A DNA stretch of 24,000 bases from an uncultured Gammaproteobacteria bacterium (GCA_964655765.1 CAZZNI010000013.1:616-24615); one strand, 5' to 3'. Shown: positions 6,483 to 22,563, counted from the first letter of the stretch. Numbers and translations: made by a program. The notes: generated by a model from the sequence alone, not told the origin.

Positions 6483-7442
6483 TTAATTTTCGGCTCTTAT
6501 TTCAATCGGGGGAATGATTTCTCCCTTGGCTTCAATTTTGATTATAGCAAAGCTTAACGCTTCTTTTTCGGTTTCGATTTCATAAACACCGTTTTGAAGA
6601 GGGGTGACAATTAAAAACTGTCCCAACTGGTTGGTTTTTAAAGCCCTGATCGGAATACCTTGTTCATTCCTGATTTCTAAAATGGCACCTTCAACCAGGT
6701 TGCCTCGTTTATCGGCGACCATGCCAGTCAAAATATTTGGCTGACTGGGAGTTTTTGGGATCGGCAATTTGGTGTTAATGGTGGCGTCAACTGTTTGAGA
6801 TTGATTAGTTTCCGGCCGTTTTTCCGGCTGGCTGAGTGGTTTAAAAACATTTGGGCTAAAGCCCGGGGCAAAATCATTTTGAGGATTGGTTGTTGAAGTG
6901 GCGGTTGTTGTTGGTGGGACAAGCGGTTTTGGCTTGGGTGGTTCAACAACGGTATTGGGATCGAAAAGGCGGCCGATTTGAGCCAGCTGGTTTTTTTCAA
7001 TTTCATCCAGTGGGCTGATATGGTCTCGGGGCAGTGACTGTAAATAACCAGATAGGTCGGCTTGGCCCTTGGGGGCGGCTTGTTTTGATCTAAGCTGGGC
7101 CATCTTAATATCCTTTTGTGGCAAGTAAGTTAAAAAGGCAGGGTAATGCTGCTGTTTTTGCCAAGTAAAAAGAGTTGGTCTGAAGGCGGCTTTGAAAAAA
7201 GCCACCAACCAGACGGAAAGGGGCCGTTCTTGGAAAGGGAAAAAAGCCAAGGCAACCCCCAAAACAGCAAAACCGATAACCGCCGGCCATTTAAAGTAAA
7301 ACGGCAAACTGGTAGCGTAAAAGAAAAATGCCAAAACCAAACCGCCGGCCAAGTAGCCGAATTGTTTTAAAGTCATCTCGCCAACTAACTTAAATTCATA
7401 AGAGGCGATATGCTGTGGTACCGGATGTTGTTTAACGGGCAT
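6483..7442 (-). CDS. PrgI/VirB3-like membrane protein fused to a Pro-rich linker and a C-terminal CarboxypepD_reg-like beta-sandwich
   Basis: The N-terminus PVPQHIASYEFKLVGEMTLKQFGYLAGGLVLAFFFY plus a second helix WPAVIGFAVLGVALAFFPF is the PrgI-family hallmark. The linker is EPPKPKPLVPPTTTATSTT. The C-terminal 83 aa (6486-6734), GMVADKRGNLVEGAILEIRNEQGIPIRALKTNQLGQFLIVTPLQNGVYEIE, match the G.V.D..G.P..GA.V....T...G.F....L..G.Y pattern. It is the first gene of the operon. Confidence 0.7.
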   Translation of the reverse strand: MPVKQHPVPQHIASYEFKLVGEMTLKQFGYLAGGLVLAFFFYATSLPFYFKWPAVIGFAVLGVALAFFPFQERPLSVWLVAFFKAAFRPTLFTWQKQQHYPAFLTYLPQKDIKMAQLRSKQAAPKGQADLSGYLQSLPRDHISPLDEIEKNQLAQIGRLFDPNTVVEPPKPKPLVPPTTTATSTTNPQNDFAPGFSPNVFKPLSQPEKRPETNQSQTVDATINTKLPIPKTPSQPNILTGMVADKRGNLVEGAILEIRNEQGIPIRALKTNQLGQFLIVTPLQNGVYEIETEKEALSFAIIKIEAKGEIIPPIEIRAEN

Positions 7443-9641: not shown

Positions 9642-11393
9642 TTAAGTTGTATCAAAATCATCTGCTCCCAATGAGACTGTTCGTCCTCGTTCTTTGATTC
9701 GTCCGCCGGCAATTTTACCGCCAATATATTTAACCCCGCTTGATGCTGCCCCAAACGCTGCTCCCCCGGCCGCATCAGTGCCAGTTTTTACTGCACTAGC
9801 ACCAATTGCTCCCATCGGTCTGGCTATTGGAGATATAGCTTCGCCGAAGCCGGTGCCATATTTCCAGGGATTAACCTGAAGAGCATCTCTAATAATCTCT
9901 CCTGCTTTTGGAATAAGAAAGAATGTCCCAAAGCCCAATAAAGGGACTAAGCCGAAAGATAAAACCCCCCAACCACTGGCAAAAGCGCCTCTAAAAATTT
10001 CTTCGGTTGAAATTGATCTGACTCCGGCTATCAGGGCGTACATTTTGGTGACTAATTCGGCGCTCAAGATAGCACCGGCAGCCGGGGCGGTAACCGGGTT
10101 AGTTAATCCGAATATACCAGCAAAAAATCCCCAAGATTCTTTAAGAGTTTCAATAAAAGTGGCTCCTCCGTGCAATGGAACATAGGTAAGAAAAAAAGCA
10201 GACAGAAGAAACATTCCGAAAACTGTTGGCAAAACAGCAATATTGGCCAAGAGGTTTTTAAACCATTTACCAAAACCTGATTGCCCAGGGATAGCGCCTA
10301 GCGCCAATTGGAGTGGTCCAAAAATAACGGCAAAAACAATTTTAGCATAGGTGGTGATTAATAAAATTGAGATTCGAAGCATAGTATAAACGAGAGCGAT
10401 TAAAATAATTAAATTTAAAATAGGGACAGTCATAACTGCGGCAATGCTAGATAAAGCGCCAACTACCAGTGGGAAAATTGCGGCAAACAAGGCTAGTCCG
10501 ATTTGAGCTCCTTCTGGCAATTCATTGATTGTTGTAACAATAGTGTTAAAGTCTTCTGATTGGGTGATTGAAGACGAAAAAACCTCAAGCAGTAAAAACA
10601 TTACTACATAAGCAAGATCAAGCATAAAGCCGGCAATTGCGTAGGAGAAAGTAACCAATAGTAATGCCATAACTACTTGCGGTATGGCATTTTGAACTGA
10701 AATAATAGTTTGCGGATTAATCTTAACTCTGAACATAATCGCCAGGCCAATAAAAACAAAAATTAGAGCGAAAAAAAGATAGGCGACATTTCGGAAAGCT
10801 TTCCACAGCGGTAAAATCGGACTAAAACCGGAAAATCCAATTCCTTGAGGATTATCTTGGGCATAGGCGGTTTTGGAAAAGCCCATGTTTCTACCTATGT
10901 CGGCGACATAGTCAATTGAAGACACTGGTTGGTTGGTATAAGCAAGGGTAACCACCTTAACGGTATCTCCTAAGGCTCCGCCTGGGAAAGAAGCGTAGTA
11001 TTGTCCGTTGGTTGAGGCAAGGGCGGCTTTATATAAGTTTGGCCCGCCCAGAGATTCAGTTAGCCAATAAACCAGGGCGTCCATTGACCCAGTGGCGCCG
11101 TTGGGACTGGTTCTGGCGGTGCCAGCTATCCAGCCATCCAGATTAATTTCACCGGTTTGGACAGATTCTTCCAGGCTCCGTTTAATTTTAAAATTAGTGT
11201 TTGATTCCAGTAAATCGGGAGTGATATTTTGTGTTTCACTATAAAGATCAGTTTCGACATTGACATCATCTCGGTTGAAGATTGTTGCGGTGGCATCGGT
11301 CGACAATAGTTTGGCGGCAAATCCAATCGCCAAACAAAGCAAGGCAATTTTTCCAAAAGAAAGACTTTTAAATCTCGAATAGAAGAAGTTCAT
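9642..11393 (-). CDS. VirB6/TrbL-like polytopic membrane protein
   Basis: 583 aa. It has an N-terminal anchor (IALLCLAIGFAAKLL), then about 180 aa of extracytoplasmic domain, then at least 6 long hydrophobic helices (for example YLFFALIFVFIGLAIMF, LNLIILIALVYTMLRISILLITTY, VLPTVFGMFLLSAFFLTYV), and a Gly/Ala-rich C-terminal tail. The size, topology and position beside pilin genes fit VirB6/PrgH/TcpH-type channel subunits. Confidence 0.6.
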   Translation of the reverse strand: MNFFYSRFKSLSFGKIALLCLAIGFAAKLLSTDATATIFNRDDVNVETDLYSETQNITPDLLESNTNFKIKRSLEESVQTGEINLDGWIAGTARTSPNGATGSMDALVYWLTESLGGPNLYKAALASTNGQYYASFPGGALGDTVKVVTLAYTNQPVSSIDYVADIGRNMGFSKTAYAQDNPQGIGFSGFSPILPLWKAFRNVAYLFFALIFVFIGLAIMFRVKINPQTIISVQNAIPQVVMALLLVTFSYAIAGFMLDLAYVVMFLLLEVFSSSITQSEDFNTIVTTINELPEGAQIGLALFAAIFPLVVGALSSIAAVMTVPILNLIILIALVYTMLRISILLITTYAKIVFAVIFGPLQLALGAIPGQSGFGKWFKNLLANIAVLPTVFGMFLLSAFFLTYVPLHGGATFIETLKESWGFFAGIFGLTNPVTAPAAGAILSAELVTKMYALIAGVRSISTEEIFRGAFASGWGVLSFGLVPLLGFGTFFLIPKAGEIIRDALQVNPWKYGTGFGEAISPIARPMGAIGASAVKTGTDAAGGAAFGAASSGVKYIGGKIAGGRIKERGRTVSLGADDFDTT

Positions 11394-11441: not shown

Positions 11442-14408
11442 TTATGGACAGTACTGTTGAGAAATGATTTGGCTTTCCTGGCTGTTTGGATTAAGAATGC
11501 CTTTGGAAACACATTGTTTGGCTTTTTCGATACCGCCAAGGTAAGGGAAGTAAAAATCACCCTTGCCGGGATTAGCTTGTGAGCTCTCATTCATTAGTTT
11601 TTGCTCTTTATCGGAAGCAATGGAGCTGTTGGAAATTTTGCCTTGATAAGAATAGCCAACGGTGCTTTTGGCATTGTCGTCTGGATAGGAGTCCATATCG
11701 GCCGGGCGGAAAATATCAAAAACTCCTCTTTGGTTCCCGCCTGAATAGGAATCACCGATGGTGTAATCGCGAATTTTACCAAGAACAGGAATTTGAGTGT
11801 CAATACCCATCTTTCGATAAAGAATTAACGGGTTATAATCGCCGTATTTGCGCCAACGGCACTCTTCTTTACATCTTTCTCTTTCATCCTGCTGGTCGGC
11901 TCTAGGGTATTTATCGCGGCACTTGTCGATACATTTATTTAGATCGGATAAAAGTTTAGTTAATTGTTTTTGGCTTAAGGTAGCTCGGTAATCAGTGGCG
12001 GTCATCACTGTTTCAATTGGATAAGGACTGGCGCAAATCGGATCGTTGGGGTTGATATCAGTAATAGCATCCATTTTGCAGGTGGGAGGAGTATAACGGT
12101 CAGGGTTTTTGCAAAGATTAGTCGGCGTGCTTGTTGGCGCTCCAATACTGGAGCAAGAAGTACTGGTTATTTCTCCGGTTGCCAAGTCAACTTTTCCCTG
12201 ACATTGGTAGTTAGTTTCTCGGATTACCTGGTCGTCAGTGTGAATATGGGGATTAAAAACAGTAACTGTTATGGTAAAGTTGCCGTTTTCATCAACTTGG
12301 GCTGGTAGTAGTCGGGAAGCGTGATTGGGGTCGGTGCTGTCGTAGTAACCTGGTGTTCCACCAGAATCGTCGAGGTTCCCGCCGTTGGCGGCAAACCAGA
12401 TGTGCATGCCAGCTTGTGCCGGACCGGTTAGTCCTTCAATGCGGATGCCGTAGTCAATCGTATTTGTTGCTGAGTTGTACCTAATATTTTCTACTCCAAC
12501 CTGGTAGGCGTATTGAGGTTCGTCGTTCGTTTCTGGTTCTGCGGTGGTGTTGGCTTGGGCCAATTGAACTGTTTCTCCTAAAGCCAATTTGTAGCCGCAG
12601 TAGCTGCTTGATTGAGCTAGTTCTTGGTCAATTTCTTTCCCATTTGGGGCGGCGACAATTACTCCTGGATTGGTAGTTTCAGAGGCGACAAGCCCTTGTT
12701 GTGCAAATTCTGGCATCAGGTGTTTATTTAATTCTTGAGTGGCTTGATAAATGGTTGCCAGATGAGGGAATGAAAGCTGGTAATTTGTGATTGATAGTTG
12801 TCCTGGTGTTCGTTGTACTTGTAGAGTTAAAGTTCCAGGAGCGTCTTTGAGTGTTGTTAATGGAATGTACGGCCACAATTTAGCCCAATCACTGCCAAGC
12901 CAAACTTCGTATTCAGCCAACCAGGCTTCCATTTCAAGTTGATAAGCCATTCGTTTTGTTTCGCTGGCGCCAGGGTCAGGATATTTTGGCTCAGTACAAG
13001 GGGTGTTTTTGAACCGGCCTTTGAATTCGGCTAACTTTTTCGGCTTCGGCAGGTGGGGGTTATCCTTAAATGGAATTTGATAATTTTCGTTTGGGTCGAT
13101 AAGAGCGGTTTCAATCATCTTACAACGCAAGACATCTTGGTATTCCGGGCTGAAAAGCTTACTCATGACTCCGGCTTGCGCTTTAGCTTCTTTATTAAAT
13201 TCTTCGCTACCAACTGGGTTTTGCGGTCCTTTGCCGACCAGCGATCCGGTAAAGTAGCGGGCGAGATATTTTGATTCTTGGTTTAACGGCGGGAAATTAT
13301 AATAGCCGACAAAAGGGACGGTAGTACTGGTGATATCTAGTTCAGCTACTCCGCCCCAAGTTCTTTCGAAATAGGCAACATTTTGTTGATCGTCGCGATC
13401 ATCCGGACAATACTTAAGTTCGCTGGCATCTTCGTCCCAGCCATGAGGGCCGTTACCTTCGTGGATATAAAACCAGGTGTCTTGTTCCATAACAAAAGTT
13501 TCGGCACAGGCCTTAATTGGTTCCTTAACTTCTCCACCGCAATCTTTACAGGCAGCCGGTCTATAAACTCCGGGCTTAGCGGCCGGGTTTTGACAAGTCA
13601 ACGGCGGTGGGGTGGGGGTGATAATGGTGGGCGGCATATTAAGGATAGCCAATAATTCTGGCGGTAAAGGATTAAGATCGGGGTTTAAGAGCCACCATTC
13701 TAACCAACGAGGGTCTTTAAAAGCACCGGTGTCGCGAATAGCGACAAATAATTCGTCTCTTGCGGTGCCGATTCGTTGTCCGGCGTCTAGCGCTAACATG
13801 AAAGTTCGGCCGGTTTCGATTGCTTGATGATACATATCAACAATCGACTGGTCGACATTAAAGTTTTCAAGATAAACAGTGTATCCGCTAACAATATCGT
13901 CCTCAGCAGTGAATTTGAGGGTAATTCCGTTTTCGTCAGCATGTAAAACAATCGCGTTGTAGCCACCACCAATGTCATAATCAGCCCAAGGAACATTAAC
14001 TTCTGCTCCAGGAGTGATATTAAAACCAACATAAGTTGCCCCGGTTCCTTCGTGGTCGGCCCAAGAAGCTGGGTGATCATTTTCAGTTGGGTTAAGATTG
14101 GCAACAGATGTGACAGTTGGAGTGGTTCCGTTCCAATCGGGTGTTAAGGTTAGAAGTTGCGGCGCGCCAGGGTCAGTGTCGTGCTCAAAAGGATATACTT
14201 GGCGATTGTCATTATCAACCAGGGTGTAAGTGTACTGGTCAATATTATATTCAGGATTATCGTCAACATAACAATCAGTGTAGTCGCCGGTAGCAGGATC
14301 ACAAGCAGCCAGTAAATTAAGCGGGGAAAAGTTTTTGGCAAACAATAGTCCAATAACAACAATGGAAAGAAAGAGGATTAGTTTTTGTGAAGCTGTTATT
14401 TTGGACAT
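11442..14408 (-). CDS. 988-aa N-terminally anchored, cysteine-rich surface protein; candidate adhesin or pilus-tip factor
   Basis: I place the start at ATG 14408 (MSKITASQKLILFLSIVVIGLLFAKNF), which removes the overlap with the upstream pilin gene that the listed 14468 start creates. There is a single N-terminal hydrophobic helix. I counted about two dozen Cys, several in clusters (CDPATGDYTDC; CQNPAAKPGVYRPAACKDCGGEVKEPIKAC; CKNPDRYTPPTCKMDAITDINPNDPIC; CIDKC...CKEEC). I recognise no enzymatic motif. Confidence 0.75.
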   Translation of the reverse strand: MSKITASQKLILFLSIVVIGLLFAKNFSPLNLLAACDPATGDYTDCYVDDNPEYNIDQYTYTLVDNDNRQVYPFEHDTDPGAPQLLTLTPDWNGTTPTVTSVANLNPTENDHPASWADHEGTGATYVGFNITPGAEVNVPWADYDIGGGYNAIVLHADENGITLKFTAEDDIVSGYTVYLENFNVDQSIVDMYHQAIETGRTFMLALDAGQRIGTARDELFVAIRDTGAFKDPRWLEWWLLNPDLNPLPPELLAILNMPPTIITPTPPPLTCQNPAAKPGVYRPAACKDCGGEVKEPIKACAETFVMEQDTWFYIHEGNGPHGWDEDASELKYCPDDRDDQQNVAYFERTWGGVAELDITSTTVPFVGYYNFPPLNQESKYLARYFTGSLVGKGPQNPVGSEEFNKEAKAQAGVMSKLFSPEYQDVLRCKMIETALIDPNENYQIPFKDNPHLPKPKKLAEFKGRFKNTPCTEPKYPDPGASETKRMAYQLEMEAWLAEYEVWLGSDWAKLWPYIPLTTLKDAPGTLTLQVQRTPGQLSITNYQLSFPHLATIYQATQELNKHLMPEFAQQGLVASETTNPGVIVAAPNGKEIDQELAQSSSYCGYKLALGETVQLAQANTTAEPETNDEPQYAYQVGVENIRYNSATNTIDYGIRIEGLTGPAQAGMHIWFAANGGNLDDSGGTPGYYDSTDPNHASRLLPAQVDENGNFTITVTVFNPHIHTDDQVIRETNYQCQGKVDLATGEITSTSCSSIGAPTSTPTNLCKNPDRYTPPTCKMDAITDINPNDPICASPYPIETVMTATDYRATLSQKQLTKLLSDLNKCIDKCRDKYPRADQQDERERCKEECRWRKYGDYNPLILYRKMGIDTQIPVLGKIRDYTIGDSYSGGNQRGVFDIFRPADMDSYPDDNAKSTVGYSYQGKISNSSIASDKEQKLMNESSQANPGKGDFYFPYLGGIEKAKQCVSKGILNPNSQESQIISQQYCP

Positions 14409-14415
14409 AATGTTT

Positions 14416-14796
14416 TTATGTTCCAGGGATTTCAAAGACAGTAACCTTGATGCCGGTAAAGCTTTCAATTAACAGCAAAATAAACCAAGAGATGATTATT
14501 AAGGCCAGGCCAAAAATAGCGTAAGTGAGAGTTTTTTGCGCCCCAGCGGCTTTTTCCGGGTCGCCGCCGGCAGTAAGATACTTAATGCCGCCAACCAGTA
14601 ACATAATAAAAACAGCCAGACCGGCAAAACGCAAAGCATAATTAAAAACAATTTGAAAAACACAGCCAATATCCTGAAGAGTTGCTGCATCGTTTTTGGC
14701 TGTGTCACTCCAACAATCATTACCTGCTGCACAGGCAACAGGTAAATTAGTGACAAATAGAACCGGTAACAGTAAAACCGCAATTATTTTTTTCAT
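14416..14796 (-). CDS. T4SS pilin-like (VirB2/TrbC-type hairpin) paralogue P7, with cleavable-looking signal peptide
   Basis: I place the start at ATG 14796 (AGGA lies 9 nt upstream). The listed 14904 start overlaps the previous gene. The signal peptide is MKKIIAVLLLPVLFVTNLPVACAA. The core is FAGLAVFIMLLVGGIKYLTAGGDPEKAAGAQKTLTYAIFGLALIIISWF, that is TM1, charged loop, TM2. Confidence 0.8.
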   Translation of the reverse strand: MKKIIAVLLLPVLFVTNLPVACAAGNDCWSDTAKNDAATLQDIGCVFQIVFNYALRFAGLAVFIMLLVGGIKYLTAGGDPEKAAGAQKTLTYAIFGLALIIISWFILLLIESFTGIKVTVFEIPGT

Positions 14797-14822
14797 TTTC
14801 TTAAATCCTAACAACCAGGCCG

Positions 14823-14858
14823 GCCACATTAACGGCAAGCCTAGGTTGTTAATGTGGC
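14823..14858 (-). promoter_or_regulatory. perfect 11-bp stem / 14-nt loop hairpin 5 nt downstream of the P6 stop
   Basis: GCCACATTAAC (14823-14833) pairs with GTTAATGTGGC (14848-14858). In the minus-strand RNA the hairpin is not followed by a U-tract, so it looks like a stabiliser, attenuator or processing element rather than a canonical intrinsic terminator. Confidence 0.4.
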
Positions 14859-14863
14859 TACAT

Positions 14864-15253
14864 TTATTGTGTAGGCGGTTGAACCTTTGGAATTTGAAGA
14901 CCACTAATGATTTTTATACCAAGGAAGGTTTCAACGATTCCAATTAATGCCCAGGTTGAAAAAACAATTGCCAGTCCAATAATTGCCGCTGTTAAAGTAC
15001 TTTGAGCTGCAGCGGTTTGTTCTTTATCGCCACCAGAGGTGATCCACTTGATACCACCGTAAATTAAAAAGAAAAAGGCGACTAAACCGGCTATAGCCAA
15101 CACTAGAGTTACTAGTCCTGAGATAATACTGGGGACAGTTAAGCTTACGGCGCCGGCAAACTCCGTTGATGGTGTCAGCGTGATTGCTTGGCCAGTGATT
15201 GCTGACTCTTGGGCATATATCGGACTTGAAATTAAGTTTAAAATTTTATCCAT
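14864..15253 (-). CDS. T4SS pilin-like paralogue P6, candidate major pilin
   Basis: 129 aa. The core is LVAFFFLIYGGIKWITSGGDKEQTAAAQSTLTAAIIGLAIVFSTW. It has a strong SD (AGGAGGGAGGTGA) in a 5' UTR behind its own consensus promoter. Confidence 0.85.
   Translation of the reverse strand: MDKILNLISSPIYAQESAITGQAITLTPSTEFAGAVSLTVPSIISGLVTLVLAIAGLVAFFFLIYGGIKWITSGGDKEQTAAAQSTLTAAIIGLAIVFSTWALIGIVETFLGIKIISGLQIPKVQPPTQ
15001..15080. repeat. 80-nt near-identical segment shared with 15498-15577 (copy 1, inside P6)
   Basis: By hand alignment 78 of 80 nt are identical. The two differences (15047 c/t, 15056 a/g) are synonymous. The flanking coding sequence of the two paralogues is clearly more diverged. 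Confidence 0.9.
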
Positions 15254-15292
15254 TTTTTTCTTTCACCTCCCTCCTGGTTATTATTAGTCATG

Positions 15293-15322
15293 ATTATAAG
15301 TAAAGTTGTAAAACAAAGTCAA
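15293..15322 (-). promoter_or_regulatory. near-consensus sigma70 promoter internal to the pilin array, driving P6
   Basis: The minus strand reads TTGACT (15322-15317), 18 nt spacer, then TATAAT (15298-15293). The -35 starts 2 nt after the P5 stop, and a roughly 40-nt leader carrying GGAGGGAGG follows. Confidence 0.5.
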
Positions 15323-15324
15323 TT

Positions 15325-15729
15325 TTATTTCAAAGTTCCGTATTGGTCGTAATATTGACCAGCTGGACTTCTCGGACCGCTTGGTAAGCTGGAATTTATA
15401 TCGTTACTGTTTAGACCGAAAAATCCTGTTACCAAATTTAGAATCGCCCAGGCGGAAAAAGCCAGTGCTAGGCCAATGATAGCAGCGGTCAAGGTTTTTT
15501 GAGCTGCAGCGGTTTGTTCTTTATCGCCACCAGAGGTGATCCATTTGATACCGCCGTAAATTAAAAAGAAAAAGGCGGTAAGAGCGGCAACAACCAAAAC
15601 TAAGTCAATAATAGCGGTGATTAAGGTTTGTAGATTATAGTCGTCGCTTGCCTGTCTTATTGGAGAGCCGATTGTGTTTAGGGCTTCACCGATGTTGCTG
15701 CTGGTGGCTTGGAGTAGAAATAAATTCAT
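15325..15729 (-). CDS. T4SS pilin-like paralogue P5
   Basis: The first ATG is at 15729 and forms an ATGA overlap with the P4 stop. The listed 15744 start is a TTG. The core is LTAFFFLIYGGIKWITSGGDKEQTAAAQKTLTAAIIGLALAFSAW. There is a polar C-terminal tail (SSLPSGPRSPAGQYYDQYGTLK). Confidence 0.8.
   Translation of the reverse strand: MNLFLLQATSSNIGEALNTIGSPIRQASDDYNLQTLITAIIDLVLVVAALTAFFFLIYGGIKWITSGGDKEQTAAAQKTLTAAIIGLALAFSAWAILNLVTGFFGLNSNDINSSLPSGPRSPAGQYYDQYGTLK
15498..15577. repeat. 80-nt near-identical segment shared with 15001-15080 (copy 2, inside P5)
   Basis: See copy 1. The segment encodes FFFLIYGGIKWITSGGDKEQTAAAQ in both genes. Confidence 0.9.
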
Positions 15730-16079
15730 TGCAATGTTGGCCAAGGAATATCTAATGTTCGCAAGAATTCTATTCCCAAAAAGCCGCCAACAAAATCAAG
15801 GATAATCGTGGCAACGGCGATCAGGGTAAAGCCAATGATACCAGTCATTAATCTCTTTTGGGCTGCCTTAACTTTCTCTGCGTCGCCGCCGGCAGTAATC
15901 CATTCCAGCGCTGCCCAAAGAATCATAAACAGCAAGGCGATACCGCCGATGATTAAAATTATTGTCATTAATTTGGCCAAAAAAAGTGCCAGGATATTAG
16001 CTCCTTGGCTGGTTGCGCCTGGTTCACAAGTTTCCGGGACTAGTGGATTACAAATAGCAGCGTAAGCCTTTTTTACCAT
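15726..16079 (-). CDS. T4SS pilin-like paralogue P4
   Basis: 117 aa. The ATG at 16079 overlaps the P3 stop by 7 nt. The core is IALLFMILWAALEWITAGGDAEKVKAAQKRLMTGIIGFTLIAVATI. There is an N-terminal Cys pair (AAICNPLVPETCEPG). Confidence 0.8.
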   Translation of the reverse strand: MVKKAYAAICNPLVPETCEPGATSQGANILALFLAKLMTIILIIGGIALLFMILWAALEWITAGGDAEKVKAAQKRLMTGIIGFTLIAVATIILDFVGGFLGIEFLRTLDIPWPTLQ

Positions 16080-16459
16080 AAGTTGCCGATTAAACCTTCT
16101 AAGTCCAAAAAGTCGATTCCTAAAATTAAACTAATTAGAGAGATTAAAGTAAAAGCGCCGATGACTATTACTAAGCCAACCAGGCTTTGGGTCATTTTTT
16201 TAGTACTGTTTTTGACAGCTTCTTCGTTGCCGGCAGAAACCACCATTCCAACTGCGGCAATCATGAAATTAAAAATAAACCATAAACCAGCAACAATAGT
16301 CATTATCCCAATAACGGTAGAAATGATTCGGCTTAAATCACCTACCGAACCGAGTCCGTCAAAAGCACCGGCGTCGGAAAAGGGTCCTAGGCCGGAATCT
16401 GGTGGCCCACCGATAAGACCCAAATCTTTGTCAGCTAAATAAACTTTATTTTTAATCAT
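16073..16459 (-). CDS. T4SS pilin-like paralogue P3 (divergent loop)
   Basis: I place the start at ATG 16459 (AGGAAG lies 6 nt upstream, and the ATG is 1 nt after the P2 TAA). The listed 16555 start runs through P2. The core is IVAGLWFIFNFMIAAVGMVVSAGNEEAVKNSTKKMTQSLVGLVIVIGAF. The N-terminal region is Gly/Asp-rich. Confidence 0.7.
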   Translation of the reverse strand: MIKNKVYLADKDLGLIGGPPDSGLGPFSDAGAFDGLGSVGDLSRIISTVIGIMTIVAGLWFIFNFMIAAVGMVVSAGNEEAVKNSTKKMTQSLVGLVIVIGAFTLISLISLILGIDFLDLEGLIGNLW

Positions 16460-16460
16460 T

Positions 16461-16796
16461 TTAGCTTCCTGGCCCATAAACTGTTGGCTCAAAAATAGCC
16501 CTGGCATCACCAAAAATAATGTAACCGAAGATGGCTCCCAGAACAAATGAACCAACTATGAAAAGTAATCCCATCAGCGACTGCCAGATTTTCGCCCAAG
16601 CCGCCTCCATTTTTTTCGGATCATCACTGGCACTTAAAAAACCAAAACCGGCTAAAACCAAGTTAAAAAAGGCCCATAAACCGCCAACGGCAATCATTAA
16701 GCGGAGAATGTTATTAAGAAAAACCAACAAACCTTCCGGTCCGGTACCGTAGTTTTGAATTACTTCTGGCGCTGCGATATTGCCGATTGGATCCAT
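16461..16796 (-). CDS. T4SS pilin-like paralogue P2
   Basis: 111 aa. There is a TAATG 1-nt overlap with P1. The core is GGLWAFFNLVLAGFGFLSASDDPKKMEAAWAKIWQSLMGLLFIVGSF. Confidence 0.75.
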   Translation of the reverse strand: MDPIGNIAAPEVIQNYGTGPEGLLVFLNNILRLMIAVGGLWAFFNLVLAGFGFLSASDDPKKMEAAWAKIWQSLMGLLFIVGSFVLGAIFGYIIFGDARAIFEPTVYGPGS

Positions 16797-17131
16797 TATT
16801 CTAGTATGCTAATGCCTGTTAAAACTTTAATAATTTGAATTGCCCACCAACTGGCTAGCACAATTGCCAGGCCAATGGCTGCGGTGGTGATAACTTTTTT
16901 ACCTTGAGCAGTTTTTTCTTCATCACCGCTACCGGCACTGGTAATCATTAGTATACCACCGGCGATTAAAATGACAAAAAGAATCACACCAATAAAGACA
17001 TAAACATTAGGTAGAATCGAAGAGATAAACGCACCGATGCTTTTGTATTCATCCTGGTTGCCGATTCCACTGGTGGAGTCACCAGGGTTAAGGAGTAGTT
17101 CTTGGCCAATGTCAAAAGCAAGCTGCTTCAT
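16796..17131 (-). CDS. T4SS pilin-like paralogue P1, first gene of the pilin operon
   Basis: 111 aa. The core is VILFVILIAGGILMITSAGSGDEEKTAQGKKVITTAAIGLAIVLASWW. There is no SD, and the promoter sits immediately upstream. Confidence 0.8.
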   Translation of the reverse strand: MKQLAFDIGQELLLNPGDSTSGIGNQDEYKSIGAFISSILPNVYVFIGVILFVILIAGGILMITSAGSGDEEKTAQGKKVITTAAIGLAIVLASWWAIQIIKVLTGISILE

Positions 17132-17138
17132 TGTCTTA

Positions 17139-17168
17139 ATGATAAGTTATTGCCTATTTTCCTGTCAA
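17139..17168 (-). promoter_or_regulatory. sigma70-like promoter of the pilin operon, predicted leaderless
   Basis: The minus strand reads TTGACA (perfect -35, 17168-17163), 18 nt spacer, then TATCAT (17144-17139), then 7 nt (taagaca) and the ATG at 17131. Confidence 0.5.
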
Positions 17169-17183
17169 ACCCGAACCGCTTCG

Positions 17184-17192
17184 TGATAAAAT
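17184..17192 (+). promoter_or_regulatory. extended -10 element (TGaTAAAAT) ahead of the polyprenyl synthase gene
   Basis: TGATAAAATGG is at 17184-17194, and the same 11-mer recurs at 21575-21585. The ATG at 17205 is 12 nt after the -10. There is no good -35. The GGGGG at 17193-17197 could instead be an SD if the true promoter lies further upstream. Confidence 0.3.
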
Positions 17193-17204
17193 GGGGGCAC
17201 TTTA

Positions 17205-18269
17205 ATGAGATTAAAAAGTTTTTTAGCTGATTATAGCCAGCAAGCCGATCAACTACTTGACCGGTTTTTCCAAGTTAAGAAAAAACAGGCGGAAACAATT
17301 TCGCCGCTAGCTGTCCAAATGCTCGATCTTTATCAAGACCATTTGCGTGGCGGTAAAAAAGCCCGGGGAGCATTAATGGTTTTGGGTTATCAAATAGCCA
17401 AAGGTAAAGAAACAAACAAGATTTTCAAAGCCTCGCTTTTTTTGGAGATGATCCATTCTTTTTTACTGATTCATGACGATGTTATGGACAAAGCCTTGCT
17501 CAGAAGAGGTAGACAAACACCGGAAGTTTTTTATCAGAAATTGGCTGATAAGAAAAATTTTAAAGGTGATAAAAAACATTTTGCTCTCTCAATGGCAATT
17601 GACTTAGGGGATCTGGGAATGTTTTTGGCCCAGGAGGCGCTTTTTGATAGCGGTTTTACCAAAGACAGGCTTTTTGATTGCCAGAAAGAAGCTAACTTAG
17701 TGTTTCAACAAGTTGCTTTCGGCCAGGCCCTTGATATTTTCGGTGAAAAGAAAGGTAAATTCAGCCAGGACTATGTTCTCAAAATCCACAAACTAAAGAC
17801 AGCTGATTATTCTGTTTCCGGCCCCTTAAGACTGGGGGCAATACTGGCTGGGGGTAACAATAGTTTATTGGAAAACTTAACTGACTATGGCTTAAACTTA
17901 GGAATTGCTTTTCAAATTCAAGACGACTATTTAGGTGCTTTTGGTGATGAGAAGGTTTTGGGCAAGGAAACCGGTCAGGATATTAAGGAAGGTAAAGCAA
18001 CGCTGTTGATTTTAAAAGCCAAACAAAAAGCCAGTCGGCAAGAAAGAGATTTTTTAGAAAAAACTTATGGCAAGAAAGATATTAGCCGGTCGGAAATAGA
18101 CAGAATTAAGGAAATTTTTATTAAAACTGGAGCGGATAAGTATAGTTTACAAAAAGCCAGTCAGCTTGTCACTGAGGCTAAAATTGTCGTTGATAAAATT
18201 ACTACTGATAAAAATAAACGAGGGCTTTTGGAACAATTGGCCGACTATATGGTGAAGAGAAATCGATGA
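17205..18269 (+). CDS. trans-polyprenyl diphosphate synthase (polyprenyl_synt family; chain length not assignable)
   Basis: The first Asp-rich motif is LLIHDDVMDKALLRRGRQT. The second is FQIQDDYLGAFGDEKVLGKETGQDIKEGKATLL. There is an ATGA overlap with uppS. Confidence 0.9.
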   Translation: MRLKSFLADYSQQADQLLDRFFQVKKKQAETISPLAVQMLDLYQDHLRGGKKARGALMVLGYQIAKGKETNKIFKASLFLEMIHSFLLIHDDVMDKALLRRGRQTPEVFYQKLADKKNFKGDKKHFALSMAIDLGDLGMFLAQEALFDSGFTKDRLFDCQKEANLVFQQVAFGQALDIFGEKKGKFSQDYVLKIHKLKTADYSVSGPLRLGAILAGGNNSLLENLTDYGLNLGIAFQIQDDYLGAFGDEKVLGKETGQDIKEGKATLLILKAKQKASRQERDFLEKTYGKKDISRSEIDRIKEIFIKTGADKYSLQKASQLVTEAKIVVDKITTDKNKRGLLEQLADYMVKRNR

Positions 18270-18988
18270 AAAAAACAATCTCAACGATCAAACTGGATAA
18301 AAATAATATCCCTAAACATATTGGCATTATTATGGACGGCAACCGTCGTTGGGCAACCAAGCGTGGTTTAGTTTCGACCGAAGGCCACGAAGCGGGGGTT
18401 AAAGCCTTGGTGGCGATAGTTGAACATTGCTTAAAGCTGGGAGTAGAAACCTTAACTGTTTACGCTCTGTCAACTGAAAATTGGAGACAGCGAGCCCAGC
18501 AGGAAGTTAAAGGCATTTTTGAATTATTAGTAAAAATGGTTCGGGAGAAGAAAAAAGAATATCGGCAGAAAGGGGTAAAGATGGCGATTTTAGGTGATTT
18601 TCAGGCTTTCCCCCGGCGGGTAGCCGGAGCAATTTCGGAAATGTTGAACATCGTTAAAGAAAAAGAGCGGTTAAAATTAAACATTGCTCTAAATTACGGC
18701 GGCCGGGATGAGATTTTGCGGGCGGTTAAAAAAATTGTTGATCAAAAAATACCGGCTAAAAAAATCACCGAAGAAACTTTCAGTAAATTTCTTTACACTA
18801 ATGGTGAGAATGATCCTGATTTGATTATTCGTACTGGCGGTGAAGTCAGATTATCAAACTTTTTACTGTGGCAGATGTCTTACGCTGAGCTTTATTTTAC
18901 CGAGACTCTTTGGCCTGATTTTAGCCCACAAAAACTTGACCGGGCAATTGCCGAATATCAAAAAAGACAGCGGCGGTTTGGCAAATAA
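18266..18988 (+). CDS. uppS: undecaprenyl (di-trans,poly-cis) diphosphate synthase
   Basis: HIGIIMDGNRRWA, LTVYALSTENWRQR, NYGGRDEI and RTGGEVRLSNFLLWQMSYAELYF are canonical cis-prenyltransferase motifs. Confidence 0.95.
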   Translation: MKKTISTIKLDKNNIPKHIGIIMDGNRRWATKRGLVSTEGHEAGVKALVAIVEHCLKLGVETLTVYALSTENWRQRAQQEVKGIFELLVKMVREKKKEYRQKGVKMAILGDFQAFPRRVAGAISEMLNIVKEKERLKLNIALNYGGRDEILRAVKKIVDQKIPAKKITEETFSKFLYTNGENDPDLIIRTGGEVRLSNFLLWQMSYAELYFTETLWPDFSPQKLDRAIAEYQKRQRRFGK

Positions 18989-19306
18989 TTAGTTGCCGAG
19001 AATAGTGACGCCAAAAATTACTTCGACCAGCTGGATTAACCACCAACTAGTAAAGATAATGATAAAACCGATTAAAGCCTGGGTGATTTTGGCCCAAGCA
19101 GCTTTGGTTTTATCAGGATTACCCATCGAAAGCATGTAGGAAATGCCACCCCAGAGCAAAAAGATAAATAAAGCAATCGCCGCCAAAGGAAAGATGTAAT
19201 TAAATGAAAGCTCCAAAAGGCCGCCCGGCTTAGTGTCGTTTAGAAAGTGGTCACTGCCAGTGATGTCGGTGTATGTTGGTAGTTTATAAGCTAAAGACTC
19301 TGTCAT
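18989..19306 (-). CDS. T4SS pilin-like paralogue P9
   Basis: 105 aa. The core is IALFIFLLWGGISYMLSMGNPDKTKAAWAKITQALIGFIIIFTSWW. Its TAA directly abuts the uppS TAA with zero intergenic bases. Confidence 0.8.
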   Translation of the reverse strand: MTESLAYKLPTYTDITGSDHFLNDTKPGGLLELSFNYIFPLAAIALFIFLLWGGISYMLSMGNPDKTKAAWAKITQALIGFIIIFTSWWLIQLVEVIFGVTILGN

Positions 19307-19312
19307 TTTATG

Positions 19313-19669
19313 TTAATCAAAAATTTTTGGAATGGCCAGGATTTCAACGCCGATAAAGTTGAGAATAAAAACAGAAAAAACAATAAACAACAGCCCCATG
19401 ACCGCAGAAGTAATAATTTCCTGTCCGCCTTTGACTTTATCGGGGTTTCCCGACGAGAGGATGACTTGAAAAGAGCCGAAGATCATTAGTAAGAAAGCGA
19501 TACCGCCACTGATGCCAAATAAAAATTGGAGAATTTGGGTTAAAAATTCGGTTGGCTTGGTTTCAATTGTGCCGAGTGCTGTTGGTATGGGTACAGCTTG
19601 AGCCTGTTGCGGCCACAGTAAACTGATTGTTATCACCAATAACAAGCCGGCCAAAAAATTTCTTTTCAT
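19313..19669 (-). CDS. T4SS pilin-like paralogue P8, with cleavable-looking signal peptide
   Basis: 118 aa. The signal peptide is MKRNFLAGLLLVITISLLWPQQAQA. The core is GGIAFLLMIFGSFQVILSSGNPDKVKGGQEIITSAVMGLLFIVFSVF. Confidence 0.8.
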   Translation of the reverse strand: MKRNFLAGLLLVITISLLWPQQAQAVPIPTALGTIETKPTEFLTQILQFLFGISGGIAFLLMIFGSFQVILSSGNPDKVKGGQEIITSAVMGLLFIVFSVFILNFIGVEILAIPKIFD

Positions 19670-19678
19670 TCTTTTTGG

Positions 19679-19708
19679 AGTTTAACATAATCCAGGCTTT
19701 AGGCTCAA
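19679..19708 (-). promoter_or_regulatory. sigma70-like promoter (extended -10) for the P8-P9 pair, near-leaderless
   Basis: The minus strand reads TTGAGC (19708-19703), 18 nt spacer, then TGtTAAACT (-10 at 19684-19679), then 9 nt to the ATG at 19669. Confidence 0.4.
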
Positions 19709-19711
19709 ACA

Positions 19712-19720
19712 TGTTATACT
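19712..19720 (+). promoter_or_regulatory. extended -10 element (TGtTATACT) ahead of the SpoIID-like gene
   Basis: TG is at 19712-19713 and TATACT at 19715-19720. AAGGAA lies at 19725-19730 and the ATG at 19734. There is no clear -35. It overlaps the divergent P8 promoter. Confidence 0.35.
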
Positions 19721-19733
19721 GCTAAAGGAAGTT

Positions 19734-21515
19734 ATGAGGCTGCTCAAACCGCTTTTTTTTATCACTGCCTTTATTCTAATTGGTCTATTTACTGCCGATT
19801 TTATTTTTTTTAGCAGCGATAATTTATTTGCCGCCTCTTGTTCCAGCGCCGATTGTTCCAGTGCCGAAGAGTGTGAGCAAAAAATTAAAGAATGCCAGGA
19901 AATTATCGGTGCTTATTCTCCGGCCCAAAGCCAAAACAAACAACAACTGCAAACACTGGAAACACAGCTCAATAATACCGAGAGTCTAATTAAAAGTGCT
20001 GAAGCTCAGGCTGATAAACTGGCGATTGAAATTGACCAAAGAGAAGCCGACTTGTCCGACCAAAAACAGATCTTTAATTCCCGAGTTAGGGATTTTTACA
20101 AACGCAGCCGGCATTTATCTCTTTTTACTGTTTTACTTTCTTCTCATAGTGCAATTGACTTAACCAGAGAATTGTCTTATCGCAACATTGCCGCCGGTGA
20201 GGACAGGAAGGTAATTTTAGATATTTCACAAAAATTGATTAACCTAGCAGTTGATAAGCAAAAATTGGAGAGCAACCGGGCTTTTTTGCAAAAAACTAAG
20301 GAAAGTTTGTCGTCACAAACTGCTTTCTTAAGAAAGGAAGTTGAAAAGGTGGAAGATTATTTGGGCGTGCTTTCAACCAGGGTAGCTGGACTTTCCGCCA
20401 AACAAAAAGCCTTGCTGGAAGCCAAAGTTGGCACTTTTCAAACCTCAGTCGGTGAAGTACCTTTGGCTGATGATCCGGCTTCTCGGCCAGATTACAATCC
20501 GGGTTTTTCTCCCGCCTGGGCAGGGTTTTCTTTCGGTGCACCGCATCGCAAAGGCATGAGCCAGTACGGTGCGCTTGGCCGATCACAAGCAGGCCAAAAT
20601 TACCAGCAGATTTTACAAGCCTATTACGGTAATGTCAGGATTGAAAGCAGGGACTTTCCGGCTTCCATTTCCACTACTGTTGGTGAACTTGATTTTGAGG
20701 GTAATTACCTGAAAGGCATTGCCGAGATGCCGTCATCTTGGGCGGCCAATGGTGGTTATGAAGCTCTTAAGGCTCAAGCGGTAGCGGCCAGAAGTTATGC
20801 CATTGTTGCGGGCAAGCCGATTTGTATTACTGAATCGTGCCAGGTTTATTCCTCTTCCAAAGCCGGTAACCCGGCAGCGGCTGATTGGCATCGGGCGGTT
20901 GAAGAAACCCGAGGTCAAGTGGTGGTGTCTAATTCCAGCAACGAGATAATTTCAACTTTTTATGCCTCTACTGCCGGTGGGGCGATTTATTCCTATAGCT
21001 CAAAAGGCCATTCAACACCGATGCTGTGGGACACTGCTTGTGGTTCTAAGGACTGCTGGACTTCGGAGGCCTGGGAAAAGAAAGCTGGTTCGCCCTGGTT
21101 TTACAAAGGCTGGTATAAAGACCGCTCTGGGGCAACTTGCGGTCGGAACAACCCCTGGCTAAATGAATCGGAGATGGCCGATATTTTAAATGCGGTGATT
21201 GTTTACCGTTCCGGTGGCGATGAGGCGGCCAGTCATATTCTGCCGGAAGATTATGTCAGTTGTTTTGGTGGTAGCGGTGATCCGTGGAATAAAGAGCAAA
21301 TGAAACAAAAGGCGGCTTCACTGGATGGAGCAATTACCAGTGTTGGGGCGGTGACAGTAACTTATGGCACCAACGGACAGACTAATAAAATCAGTTTTGT
21401 TACTAATCGAGGCAGTTTCGAAGTTGATGGCGATCAGTTTAAAACCGTTTTTAACTTGCGAGCGCCGGGTCGAATTGCCCTCAAGTCGATGTTGTTCAAC
21501 ATCGAGAAAAAATAA
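19734..21515 (+). CDS. SpoIID/LytB-domain peptidoglycan-remodelling protein with N-terminal anchor and coiled coil
   Basis: The TM helix is LFFITAFILIGLFTADFIFF, followed by a Cys cluster (CSSADCSSAEECEQKIKEC) and about 200 aa of heptad-like Q/E/K-rich sequence. The SpoIID-type motifs are EMPSSWAANGGYEALKAQAVAARSYA and ESCQVYSS. Confidence 0.8.
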   Translation: MRLLKPLFFITAFILIGLFTADFIFFSSDNLFAASCSSADCSSAEECEQKIKECQEIIGAYSPAQSQNKQQLQTLETQLNNTESLIKSAEAQADKLAIEIDQREADLSDQKQIFNSRVRDFYKRSRHLSLFTVLLSSHSAIDLTRELSYRNIAAGEDRKVILDISQKLINLAVDKQKLESNRAFLQKTKESLSSQTAFLRKEVEKVEDYLGVLSTRVAGLSAKQKALLEAKVGTFQTSVGEVPLADDPASRPDYNPGFSPAWAGFSFGAPHRKGMSQYGALGRSQAGQNYQQILQAYYGNVRIESRDFPASISTTVGELDFEGNYLKGIAEMPSSWAANGGYEALKAQAVAARSYAIVAGKPICITESCQVYSSSKAGNPAAADWHRAVEETRGQVVVSNSSNEIISTFYASTAGGAIYSYSSKGHSTPMLWDTACGSKDCWTSEAWEKKAGSPWFYKGWYKDRSGATCGRNNPWLNESEMADILNAVIVYRSGGDEAASHILPEDYVSCFGGSGDPWNKEQMKQKAASLDGAITSVGAVTVTYGTNGQTNKISFVTNRGSFEVDGDQFKTVFNLRAPGRIALKSMLFNIEKK

Positions 21516-21603: not shown

Positions 21604-22299
21604 ATGCCGGATATTTTTGTGGCCAGTAAAGCTAAAGAAAAAGAAGAAAAAAAACCTGTGGTTAAAAAAAATACCGCCGTTGACAACCAGGATTTACCGC
21701 AAAAAGGTGAAACTGCCAAGGAGTTGCTGAAAGAAAGAAGCCGTTCGATTTGGGCCGCTTTTGCCCCTCGGCCGACAAAAATACACTTTGAAACCCAGGA
21801 AGCCAAGGAAAAGGTCTTGTTGTTGGTTCGTAAACACCCGATTACCAATATACCCTGGATCTTATTGGTTATTTTAATGGCCTTAGCACCTTTTTTGGTT
21901 TTTGCCATTACTAATTTTGATTTTGTACCGGCCAACTTTCGTCTAATCTTGACTCTTTTTTGGTATCTGTTTGTTTTCGCTTACGGCTTTGAGCGGTTTT
22001 TATCCTGGTTTTTTAATGTCAACATTATCACCGATGAGCGGGTAGTTGATGTTAATTTTCCCAACATTCTTTACCGTGACATTAGCCAAACTAAGATTGA
22101 CCAGGTCCAGGATGTTTCGGTTAAGGTTGGCGGTTTTGTCCGATCGTTGTTTAATTACGGCGATGTTTTAATACAGACGGCCGGCACGATTCCGGAGATT
22201 GAATTTATTGATGTTCCTTTTCCGGGCAAGATCGTTAAGATTTTAAATCAGCTGGTTTTAGAAGAAGAGCAGGAGAAACTGGAAGGGAGGGCCAGGTGA
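21604..22299 (+). CDS. membrane protein with bacterial PH (bPH/YdbS-YdbT-like) domain
   Basis: It has a Lys-rich N-terminus and two TM helices (IPWILLVILMALAPFLVFAI, LILTLFWYLFVFAYGF), followed by NVNIITDERVVDVNF...ISQTKIDQVQDVSVKVGGFVRSLFNYGDVLIQTAG, the bPH pattern. Confidence 0.7.
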   Translation: MPDIFVASKAKEKEEKKPVVKKNTAVDNQDLPQKGETAKELLKERSRSIWAAFAPRPTKIHFETQEAKEKVLLLVRKHPITNIPWILLVILMALAPFLVFAITNFDFVPANFRLILTLFWYLFVFAYGFERFLSWFFNVNIITDERVVDVNFPNILYRDISQTKIDQVQDVSVKVGGFVRSLFNYGDVLIQTAGTIPEIEFIDVPFPGKIVKILNQLVLEEEQEKLEGRAR

Positions 22300-22553
22300 A
22301 CATTTCAACAGGACAGCAATTAGAGCTGATCAGTTTAGACAATTTACTTAATCTTAATATCTGGCAAATTTTAAAATGGCCGTTGTTGTTGCTTTTTTTG
22401 ATCTACTTGGCCTTCGCTTTCATTGTTGTTCGCCAGGTAGGGCTGATGAGCCGGACTTTAAACGGCGCTCTTGACCTGCCGGTTAAGATGATAGCCTGGC
22501 TTCATTTACTGGTTAGCTTTTTAATCTTTGTTTTGGCGTTGGTGATTCTTTAA
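22296..22553 (+). CDS. small two-TM membrane protein
   Basis: 85 aa. Its GTG start forms a GTGA overlap with the upstream stop. The helices are WPLLLLFLIYLAFAFIVV and LHLLVSFLIFVLALVIL. Confidence 0.5.
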   Translation: MNISTGQQLELISLDNLLNLNIWQILKWPLLLLFLIYLAFAFIVVRQVGLMSRTLNGALDLPVKMIAWLHLLVSFLIFVLALVIL

Positions 22554-22563
22554 AAACTAAAAC

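Follow-up and report, generated by a model that had tools for sequence, protein, structure and literature searches.

Arrays of small pilin genes are a described feature of Patescibacteria loci that encode a type IV secretion system (T4SS). A search of 3,035 Patescibacteria genomes with the families PF18895 (T4SS_pilin) and PF04956 (TrbC/VirB2) recovered 441 arrays, each with 2-11 pilins, which were commonest in Microgenomatia and Saccharimonadia, located near dnaA/dnaN, lacking a relaxase, accompanied by a VirB4 from a Patescibacteria clade related to MPF_FATA, and with a mean intra-array identity of 25% and a maximum of 54% (Quinonero-Coronel et al., 2025; PMC12102498). From the parallel with Bartonella and Anaplasma, the authors suggested that the arrays give host-range versatility (PMC12102498). 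In Southlakia epibionticum a pilin series of this kind was found to be essential by transposon sequencing (Tn-seq) (Wang et al., 2023; PMC10633639), and a 2025 review terms the pilin array remarkable and notes that a pilus is not yet demonstrated (PMC12857230). Recent reviews pick out the array as the main open puzzle, since it poses the question whether a Gram-positive-type T4SS makes a pilus. The present analysis concerns a 24,000-nucleotide stretch of DNA (hereafter the window), deposited as an uncultured Gammaproteobacteria bacterium (GCA_964655765.1, CAZZNI010000013.1:616-24615), which carries nine such pilin genes, P1-P9, and whose array, as judged from sequence comparison with related loci, is an ancient, ordered set of eight distinct pilins under purifying selection.

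The locus matches every descriptive feature of the published arrays and is a further example of them, not a new kind of system. As in those arrays (PMC12102498; Southlakia SEML1_0006-0019, PMC10633639), PF18895 genes stand in tandem or are split by non-pilin genes, within a VirB4/TrsD/PrgI locus beside dnaN that has no relaxase or coupling protein, and they share ~25% identity with a maximum of ~54%. Unlike in typical published arrays, the nine copies lie near the top of the 2-11 range and are split 7+2 by two isoprenoid genes. Whereas the published reading leans to host-range versatility, the genes here fall into eight position-conserved orthologous classes, and this is the addition of the present analysis to the published picture; neither positional orthology, nor the expression signals of the P6 class, nor the coupling of P7 to a protein of 988 amino acids (aa) is discussed in the 2025 survey, in which the word “ortholog” is not used (PMC12102498). 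The initial annotation of this DNA had implied novelty in the array itself, as known T4SSs normally encode a single VirB2, a premise that is outdated for Patescibacteria, for which arrays of 2-11 pilins have been published (PMC12102498; PMC10633639; PMC12857230).

Other T4SS pilins resemble those of the window in part. The TrbC/VirB2 pilins (PF04956) of the T-pilus, RP4 and F-like systems are likewise of ~100 aa, with two helices, a short loop, a VirB4 alongside and termini presumed to lie outside. TrbC/VirB2 pilins polymerise into an extracellular pilus with bound phospholipid. However, these systems have an outer-membrane core complex and a single pilin gene, whose product always bears a long signal peptide that is cleaved off, and the acidic or neutral loop (GGDxEK) of the window pilins is unlike that of TrbC/VirB2. 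In Bartonella, Anaplasma and Rickettsia, several divergent VirB2-type genes also share one T4SS locus, but those copies are held to be lineage-specific amplifications for antigenic variation (cited in PMC12102498), whereas the classes described here are ancient and ordered. The Mbov_0395 family (NF045849) of Mycoplasma integrative and conjugative elements (ICEs) is also a small protein with two transmembrane (TM) segments from a monoderm conjugative T4SS, although it is present as a single gene per element, going by the family description. With the major and minor subunit sets of type IV pili and type II secretion there is a functional analogy only, as both comprise abundant and conserved low-copy subunits with orthologous lineages of their own, but the fold, the prepilin peptidase signal and the assembly machine are unrelated.

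Organisation of the pilin array

All positions are given in window numbering, and all nine pilin genes are on the minus strand, P1-P7 in tandem at 14416-17131 and P8 and P9 at 18989-19669, each encoding ~105-135 aa.

16796-17131 (-), P1, pilin class m1, 111 aa; PF18895 E 7e-7, 29.6 bits
16461-16796 (-), P2, pilin class m2, 111 aa; PF18895 26.5 bits (cut-off 26.6)
16073-16459 (-), P3, pilin class m3, 128 aa, ATG start; PF18895 25.0 bits, custom pilin hidden Markov model (HMM) E 7e-29
15726-16079 (-), P4, pilin class m4, 117 aa, N-terminal Cys pair; PF18895 E 1e-9
15325-15729 (-), P5, pilin class m5, 134 aa, ATG start, paralogue of P6; PF18895 E 1e-11
14864-15253 (-), P6, pilin class m5, 129 aa, candidate major subunit; PF18895 E 6e-11
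14416-14799 (-), P7, pilin class m7, 127 aa, ATG start, signal peptide, Cys pair; PF18895 E 7e-9
19313-19669 (-), P8, pilin class d1, 118 aa, signal peptide; PF18895 E 2e-8
18989-19306 (-), P9, pilin class d2, 105 aa; PF18895 E 2e-10, NF045849 E 7e-9

The seven tandem and two further TM-loop-TM genes of the initial annotation are thus borne out by the open reading frames (ORFs) and by a hydropathy scan, which finds two core hydrophobic helices in all nine proteins, and the nine loop strings that it listed all occur exactly in the sequence. The short overlaps that it reported are also present, P1/P2 overlapping by 1 nt (TAATG, read from the sequence), P3/P4 by 7 nt (ATGGTAA) and P4/P5 by 4 nt (ATGA), while P2 and P3 are separated by a 1-nt spacer and gaps of 71, 64 and 6 nt lie between P5 and P6, P6 and P7, and P8 and P9, respectively. 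Open frames continue upstream of three of the chosen ATGs (for P3 to a TTG at 16555, for P5 with an alternative TTG at 15744, and for P7 to 14904). The longer TTG/GTG starts were rejected because orthologues start at the ATGs, and the longer P7 also because the hairpin in the P6-P7 gap would fall within it.

Among the nine pilins the hydropathy scan detects an additional N-terminal hydrophobic segment in P7 and P8 only, in agreement with the claim that these alone have signal peptides, the leader of P6 being weak. The Cys pairs assigned to P4 and P7 were likewise recovered, P4 having two Cys and P7 three, one of them within the signal peptide. The proposed post-loop motif x2-3 A(A/G/W)(Q/A)K holds approximately but fails in P1, P3, P6 and P8. 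In alignment the paralogues are 17-36% identical to P1, and P5 and P6 are 54% identical to one another. These two genes share a 157-nt repeat (P5 15446-15602, P6 14949-15105) that is 83% identical and holds an 80-nt core, 97.5% identical, encoding the end of the first TM helix and the loop; outside the repeat they have diverged, synonymous sites included. The 80-nt tract suggests gene conversion or a recent duplication.

Positional orthology across related loci

The comparison comprised 11 loci, namely the window, two loci found via homologues of P6 (L005 and L007), and eight from GTDB genomes found via the 988-aa protein (L009-L016). Their shared layout runs from SpoIID through two pilins, UppS and polyprenyl synthase, six or seven further pilins, a protein of ~1000 aa, a polytopic protein and an opposite-strand gene to PrgI, TrsD and VirB4, with synteny to the last three seen where the flank reaches (L005, L007, L011, L013, L015 and L016). 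A custom HMM identified 79 pilin ORFs in the 11 loci. In each other locus the best BLAST match of most window pilins has the corresponding place in the array; this holds for seven of the nine in essentially every locus with that position, while P4, P5 and P6 deviate in a few loci, and average-linkage clustering groups the pilins by array position and never by genome, with the exception of P5/P6. Eight classes result, two at the distal position (d1, P8; d2, P9) and six in the main array (m1, P1; m2, P2; m3, P3; m4, P4; m5, P5 and P6; m7, P7). Orthologues of P1 occupy the first array position in nine loci, and positional orthologues of P3 are present as well.

Pilin orthologues are 33-73% identical between genomes, in which the non-pilin proteins are ~25-75% identical: 27-44% for IspA, 42-58% for PrgI, 28-44% for the VirB6-like protein, 23-38% for the 988-aa protein, and 66-77% for the better conserved VirB4. 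The most conserved class is m2, with orthologues of P2 45-73% identical and the C-terminal tail conserved too. Among orthologues the N-terminal tails are 29-39% and the cores 39-67% identical. The initial annotation had described the N-termini as unrelated and hypervariable; they are indeed unalignable between paralogues, but their identity among orthologues indicates that they are class-specific. Lineage-specific duplication was found in class m5 alone, in the window (P5 and P6) and independently in L005 (m5/m6). Paralogues closer to one another within a genome, as antigenic variation would produce, are accordingly limited across the 11 loci to these two pairs of in-paralogues.

Because the clusters follow position and the orthologues are 33-73% identical, the array is best read as an ancient ordered set and not as a recent or diversifying amplification. 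Recent tandem amplification was rejected on the same ground, as best matches and clusters follow array position and not genome.

Family assignment and relationship to VirB2

PF18895 is the best Pfam match for all nine window pilins (E 1e-11 to 2e-5), and seven pass its gathering cut-off of 26.6 bits (29.6-45 bits), P2 (26.5) and P3 (25.0) falling short by less than 2 bits; despite these scores, both lie in clean orthologous clusters with members of the family. The architecture of PF18895 (~100 aa, two TM helices and a short loop) is seen in the hydropathy profiles, in the alignment and in an AlphaFold2 model of P6 built from a 65-sequence alignment, in which a disordered N-terminal tail precedes helices at 40-72 and 77-111 that form a hairpin, with a predicted local distance difference test (pLDDT) score above 95 across residues 50-100. 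The VirB2-like hairpin that had been anticipated was thus obtained. PF18895 is also the best match for all 78 relatives, and it is found in all 113 homologues of P6. Because the family is the best match in nine of nine and the array recurs in ten other loci, the nine-gene array is not due to chance. Together with VirB4, TrsD and PrgI/VirB3 in the same locus, these matches uphold the initial T4SS-pilin call. The PF18895-type pilin family is very large, as a profile of the nine pilins retrieves 92,280 cluster representatives at E <=1e-3 from a library of 1.84 billion proteins. The same profile gave chance matches alone against PDB sequences (a de novo design and a G-protein-coupled receptor).

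The profile comparison to VirB2/TrbC that had been proposed gave a more qualified outcome, a weak collinear match with no window protein at the family threshold. The orthologue of P9 in L007 exceeds the PF04956 gathering cut-off (29.1 against 27.9 bits), and PF04956 is the second most frequent Pfam family in the 78 relatives, 11 of which match it at E <=1 (best E 1e-6). With hhalign, a profile of eight plasmid VirB2/TrbC proteins matched collinearly over 68 columns (P=0.0013, probability 18%). P9 is the most TrbC-like class. The long cleaved signal peptide of TrbC/VirB2 pilins is not shown by most of the window pilins, a classical one being present in P7 and P8 only. A superfamily-level link to PF04956 is therefore plausible, though the profile scores do not place the window pilins within that family, and they probably function like VirB2 and are distantly related to it.

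Matches to NF045849 were obtained for P9 (E 7e-9), P6 (2e-5) and P2 (9e-5), all below its 40-bit cut-off, and weak matches to DUF6112 also occurred. On the strength of these matches, pilin-like hairpins may already have been present in monoderm MPF_FATA-type systems, which bears on the published idea that Patescibacteria co-opted pilins from diderm T4SSs. A literature search on the pilin-like Mbov_0395 family of Mycoplasma returned nothing useful.

Putative transcription units and a candidate major subunit

Three candidate signals were located around the array.

17139-17168 (-), sigma-70-like promoter candidate upstream of P1, TTGACA-18-TATCAT, 11/12 positions
15293-15322 (-), sigma-70-like promoter candidate upstream of P6, TTGACT-18-TATAAT, 11/12 positions
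14822-14859 (no strand assigned), 15-bp inverted repeat (hairpin) in the P6-P7 gap; minimum free energy of the gap -24.4 kcal/mol

Of the sigma-70-like matches on the coding strand of 14300-19800, those before P1 and P6 are the best two and lie in the only two sizeable upstream gaps, and P6 is preceded by a strong AGGAGG ribosome-binding site. In the three loci with all junctions tabulated, gaps of 50-126 nt lie on both sides of the m5-class gene, the sole other long gap among these junctions being one of 48 nt between m3 and m4 in L005, and in the relatives a gap of 50-145 nt invariably comes after the m5-class gene. No other class has a hairpin or a terminator-like gap behind it. In six of the nine relatives with this junction (L007, L009, L011, L014, L015 and L016) the gap contains a hairpin with a T-run, after which a TTGAC..TAGACT-type site precedes the m7 gene. 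At the junction of the m7 gene with the gene for the ~1000-aa protein, each of the three loci examined has a spacing of -4 to +7 nt. From these signals the likely transcription units are P8-P9, P1-P5, P6 alone, and P7 with the 988-aa gene onwards. An abundant P6-class subunit alongside low-copy products of the other classes would be expected to show such a pattern, and P6 is accordingly put forward as a candidate major subunit because of its promoter-like site, the AGGAGG, the flanking gaps, the hairpin and the duplication confined to its class.

Topology, terminal domains and fused pilins

The N-terminal tails that lack a signal peptide are acidic, four of five having a net charge of -2 to -3. 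Orthologues of P8 (class d1) in L005, L011, L013 and L014 bear an N-terminal extension of 60-230 aa after the signal peptide, mostly Cys-rich, and Cys-rich C-terminal extensions are found in L005_m3, L009_m5 and L016_m5. In these d1 orthologues (L005 352-1341, L011 2524-3054, L013 370-1143, L014 810-1457) the extension is mostly Pro/Thr-rich as well, and P8 of the window has none. Because the N-terminal tails are acidic and Cys-rich domains sit at both termini, it is most likely that both termini are extracytoplasmic and the GGDxEK loop cytoplasmic, which is the topology of VirB2, and the extensions suggest adhesin-like modules displayed at pilin termini. P6 and its orthologues have a weak leader ending in ..YAQ or ..FAQ. 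Most classes, as seen in P1, P3, P4, P6 and P9 with their orthologues, have a short, conserved hydrophobic-x-Ala motif (..QLA|F, ..YLA|D, ..AYA|A, ..IYA|Q, ..SLA|Y) in the first 5-20 residues, which resembles the end of a signal peptide without its full hydrophobic core and is possibly a vestigial leader or processing site.

The relatives that score highest among the 1.84 billion library proteins each combine 2-17 pilin hairpins in one polypeptide, continuous in sequence and as long as 1775 aa (P0114, P0119, P0122 and others); they are not mentioned in the 2025 survey (PMC12102498). One such gene, with six hairpins (L025 1777-3435), sits within an array whose other pilins have one hairpin each. 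In the fusions with solid class assignment, array neighbours are joined in order (d1-d2, m2-m3, m3-m4 and m4-m5), which supports the joint assembly of neighbouring paralogues.

The T4SS locus and its host

The remaining genes of the system lie to either side of the pilins.

1-1035 (+), dnaN, three DNA_pol3_beta domains; the frame runs off the window start; marks proximity to the replication origin
2040-3608 (-), membrane-anchored M23 peptidase, cell-wall hydrolase and VirB1 analogue; PF01551 E 7e-21
3592-5478 (-), VirB4-like ATPase; PF19044 E 9e-28, PF12846, PF03135; Walker A at residue 274
5475-6482 (-), TrsD/TraD-like conjugative transfer protein; NF041427 E 4e-6, orthologues annotated PF26593 TraC-like
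6483-7442 (-), PrgI (VirB3-like) with a CarboxypepD_reg domain; PF12666 E 1e-6
9642-11393 (-), 583-aa polytopic membrane protein, candidate VirB6/PrgH analogue, at least 8 hydrophobic segments, position conserved
11442-14408 (-), 988-aa protein with an N-terminal anchor (one N-terminal TM helix) and 21 Cys, always following the last pilin
17205-18988 (+), polyprenyl synthase and UppS genes, dividing the pilins 7+2; PF00348, PF01255

VirB4 is the sole Walker A protein in the 24 kb and lies ~9 kb and five genes from the pilins. Pfam and NCBIfam gave no match to a relaxase or coupling protein among the window proteins, and no assignment, at relaxed thresholds included, for the proteins of 339, 655, 583 and 988 aa. 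The position of the 988-aa protein is kept in L005 and L007, the other eight loci having been retrieved with it as the query and thus providing no independent test of its position. The isoprenoid genes interrupt the array in L005 and L007 by gene call and in L010, L011, L013 and L014 as judged from tblastn and the distal pilin pair; the linkage of polyprenyl synthase and undecaprenyl-diphosphate synthase between the sub-arrays is kept in otherwise deeply diverged genomes, and in L005 mevalonate-pathway genes also lie there. Between the VirB6-like gene and PrgI a large gene on the opposite strand holds a conserved place (window 7520-9487 (+); L005 15905-18151; L007 15506-17812), although its products of 655, 748 and 768 aa have no convincing mutual similarity, family match, signal peptide or TM helix. 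This gene is a candidate variable effector or cargo of the T4SS. Towards the window end there are a bPH_2-domain membrane protein at 21604-22299, a small TM ORF at ~22310-22560, and an ORF starting “MAALLKTARIVGNL...” at ~22560-24000 (+) that runs off the end. Rfam and tRNA scans of the 24 kb gave no match.

From its gene content and its relatives, the window is a dnaN-proximal, monoderm-type T4SS locus of an uncultured Microgenomatia-type Patescibacterium (candidate phyla radiation, CPR), an affiliation taken from the names of homologues and related metagenome-assembled genomes (MAGs) and from the monoderm-type partners TrsD and PrgI. Where named, the homologues of P6 come mostly from Microgenomates, Roizmanbacteria or Patescibacteria MAGs; Shapirobacteria is a further name among the homologues retrieved. 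Several of the GTDB MAG records with a Patescibacteria-type locus (L009, L010, L012-L014 and L016) are titled “uncultured Gammaproteobacteria” or “Pseudomonadales bacterium”, titles that are probably mislabelled.

Discussion

The present data allow a model in which the nine genes encode PF18895 pilins of a Patescibacteria T4SS, in eight ancient classes, one of them a major and seven of them specialised subunits of a host-contact structure, a reading that we hold with a probability of roughly 0.75. Each pilin would insert into the cytoplasmic membrane with its termini outside and its (T/S)(S/A)GGDxEK loop inside, from where a VirB4-driven machine may extract the pilins into a wall-spanning fibre or conduit. 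This structure would consist of one abundant subunit, of the P6/P5 class, and seven specialised low-copy subunits, among which P7 may be co-expressed with the 988-aa protein as a possible distal adhesin and the P8 class could bear a large extracellular N-terminal domain. The role of the assembled structure would be contact-dependent exchange with a host cell. In Southlakia epibionticum the homologous system, pilin series included, is essential for epibiotic growth (PMC10633639). Among the meanings that the initial annotation had offered for the array, a heteropolymeric fibre or minor pilins thus fits the data, but antigenic or host-range diversification does not, as the classes are ancient, ordered and conserved.

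Several observations weigh against this model. The 11-locus sample was recruited through the neighbouring 988-aa protein and represents a single lineage. The homology to VirB2 is weak, as PF04956 matched none of the nine window pilins at E <=0.1 (its gathering cut-off being 27.9 bits), and the hhalign result ranged over runs from P 0.0013 to 0.05 and from 7 to 18% probability, which is not standalone proof of homology. A Foldseek search of PDB with the P6 model returned generic helical hairpins (best E 1.4), such a search being uninformative for this fold, and the archaeal conjugation pilin 8dfu stood at rank 33 in the list with E 6. Promoters and terminators were called by consensus matching and not measured; the 15 promoter-like sites in total are not above a shuffled expectation of 11.8, and the P6-P7 hairpin of the window has no clean T-run on the minus strand. 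Some of the polypilins are possibly stop-loss or assembly artefacts, as P8 and P9 share a reading frame and lie only 6 nt apart. Finally, no such pilin fibre has been observed in any Patescibacterium (PMC12857230; PMC12206443), and the filaments seen by cryo-electron tomography (cryo-ET) in Nanosynbacter were ascribed to type IV pili (PMC12206443).

An alternate scenario, which we consider unlikely, would keep the hairpins packed in the cytoplasmic membrane as a channel or assembly platform that is never extruded. Monoderm MPF_FATA systems lack a pilus (PMC12102498), no T4SS pilus was seen by cryo-ET in Saccharibacteria (PMC12206443), covalent poly-hairpins of up to 17 units are more easily pictured as a membrane bundle, and the sub-threshold NF045849 matches lead to a small two-TM family of Mycoplasma ICEs. 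However, a relationship to TrbC/VirB2 pilins is detectable, the extracellular Cys-rich termini of orthologues and the coupled 988-aa surface protein suggest surface exposure, and the major-subunit-like signals around P6 fit a polymer.

Still less probable is a diversification cassette of interchangeable major pilins that vary to match host strains or to evade recognition, a reading proposed for the VirB2 families of Bartonella and Anaplasma and also suggested in the case of Patescibacteria (PMC12102498). It would account for the low intra-array identity (17-36%), for the presumably exposed N-terminal segments that do not align between paralogues, and for the independent duplication of the P5/P6 class in the window and in L005, in which the two copies diverge at both tails. 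However, paralogues cluster by position across deeply divergent genomes and by genome only for P5/P6, conservation among orthologues equals that of most other T4SS proteins of the locus, their N-termini still being 29-39% identical, and gene order is fixed. These comparisons favour a fixed set of major and minor pilins over antigenic or host-range diversification. An unrelated two-TM family (holins, or of bacteriocin-immunity type) lying near a T4SS by chance is effectively refuted, since, for all the generic hairpin fold, the non-specific Foldseek matches and many weak matches to miscellaneous membrane families, PF18895 is the best match throughout (9/9 and 78/78), the L007 orthologue of P9 passes PF04956, TrbC is the second most frequent Pfam family, synteny is retained, and the holin or other two-TM assignment that the initial annotation had named as telling against the pilin reading was found neither by Pfam in the window pilins and the 78 relatives nor by NCBIfam in the window.

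Within the preferred model of major and specialised subunits, a stronger form may be proposed, tentatively and at less than even odds: the eight classes could all be required, with none able to replace another, in a single heteromeric structure of VirB2 type in a monoderm, in which a P6-class polymer is combined with seven specialised subunits that act as initiator, adaptor or tip, one of them tied to the 988-aa protein and another capable of bearing an adhesin-like domain. Known VirB2 pili are homopolymeric, a VirB5 tip being their only addition, and the T4SS of Patescibacteria is the only one known to be essential for the growth of its owner. If true, the heteromeric structure would be the first multi-pilin T4SS fibre, and the fused polypilins would be its covalent version. 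The picture of many variable pilins may thus give way to a testable model of eight fixed classes in fixed order, with the P6 class as the likely major subunit and one class tied to a surface protein.

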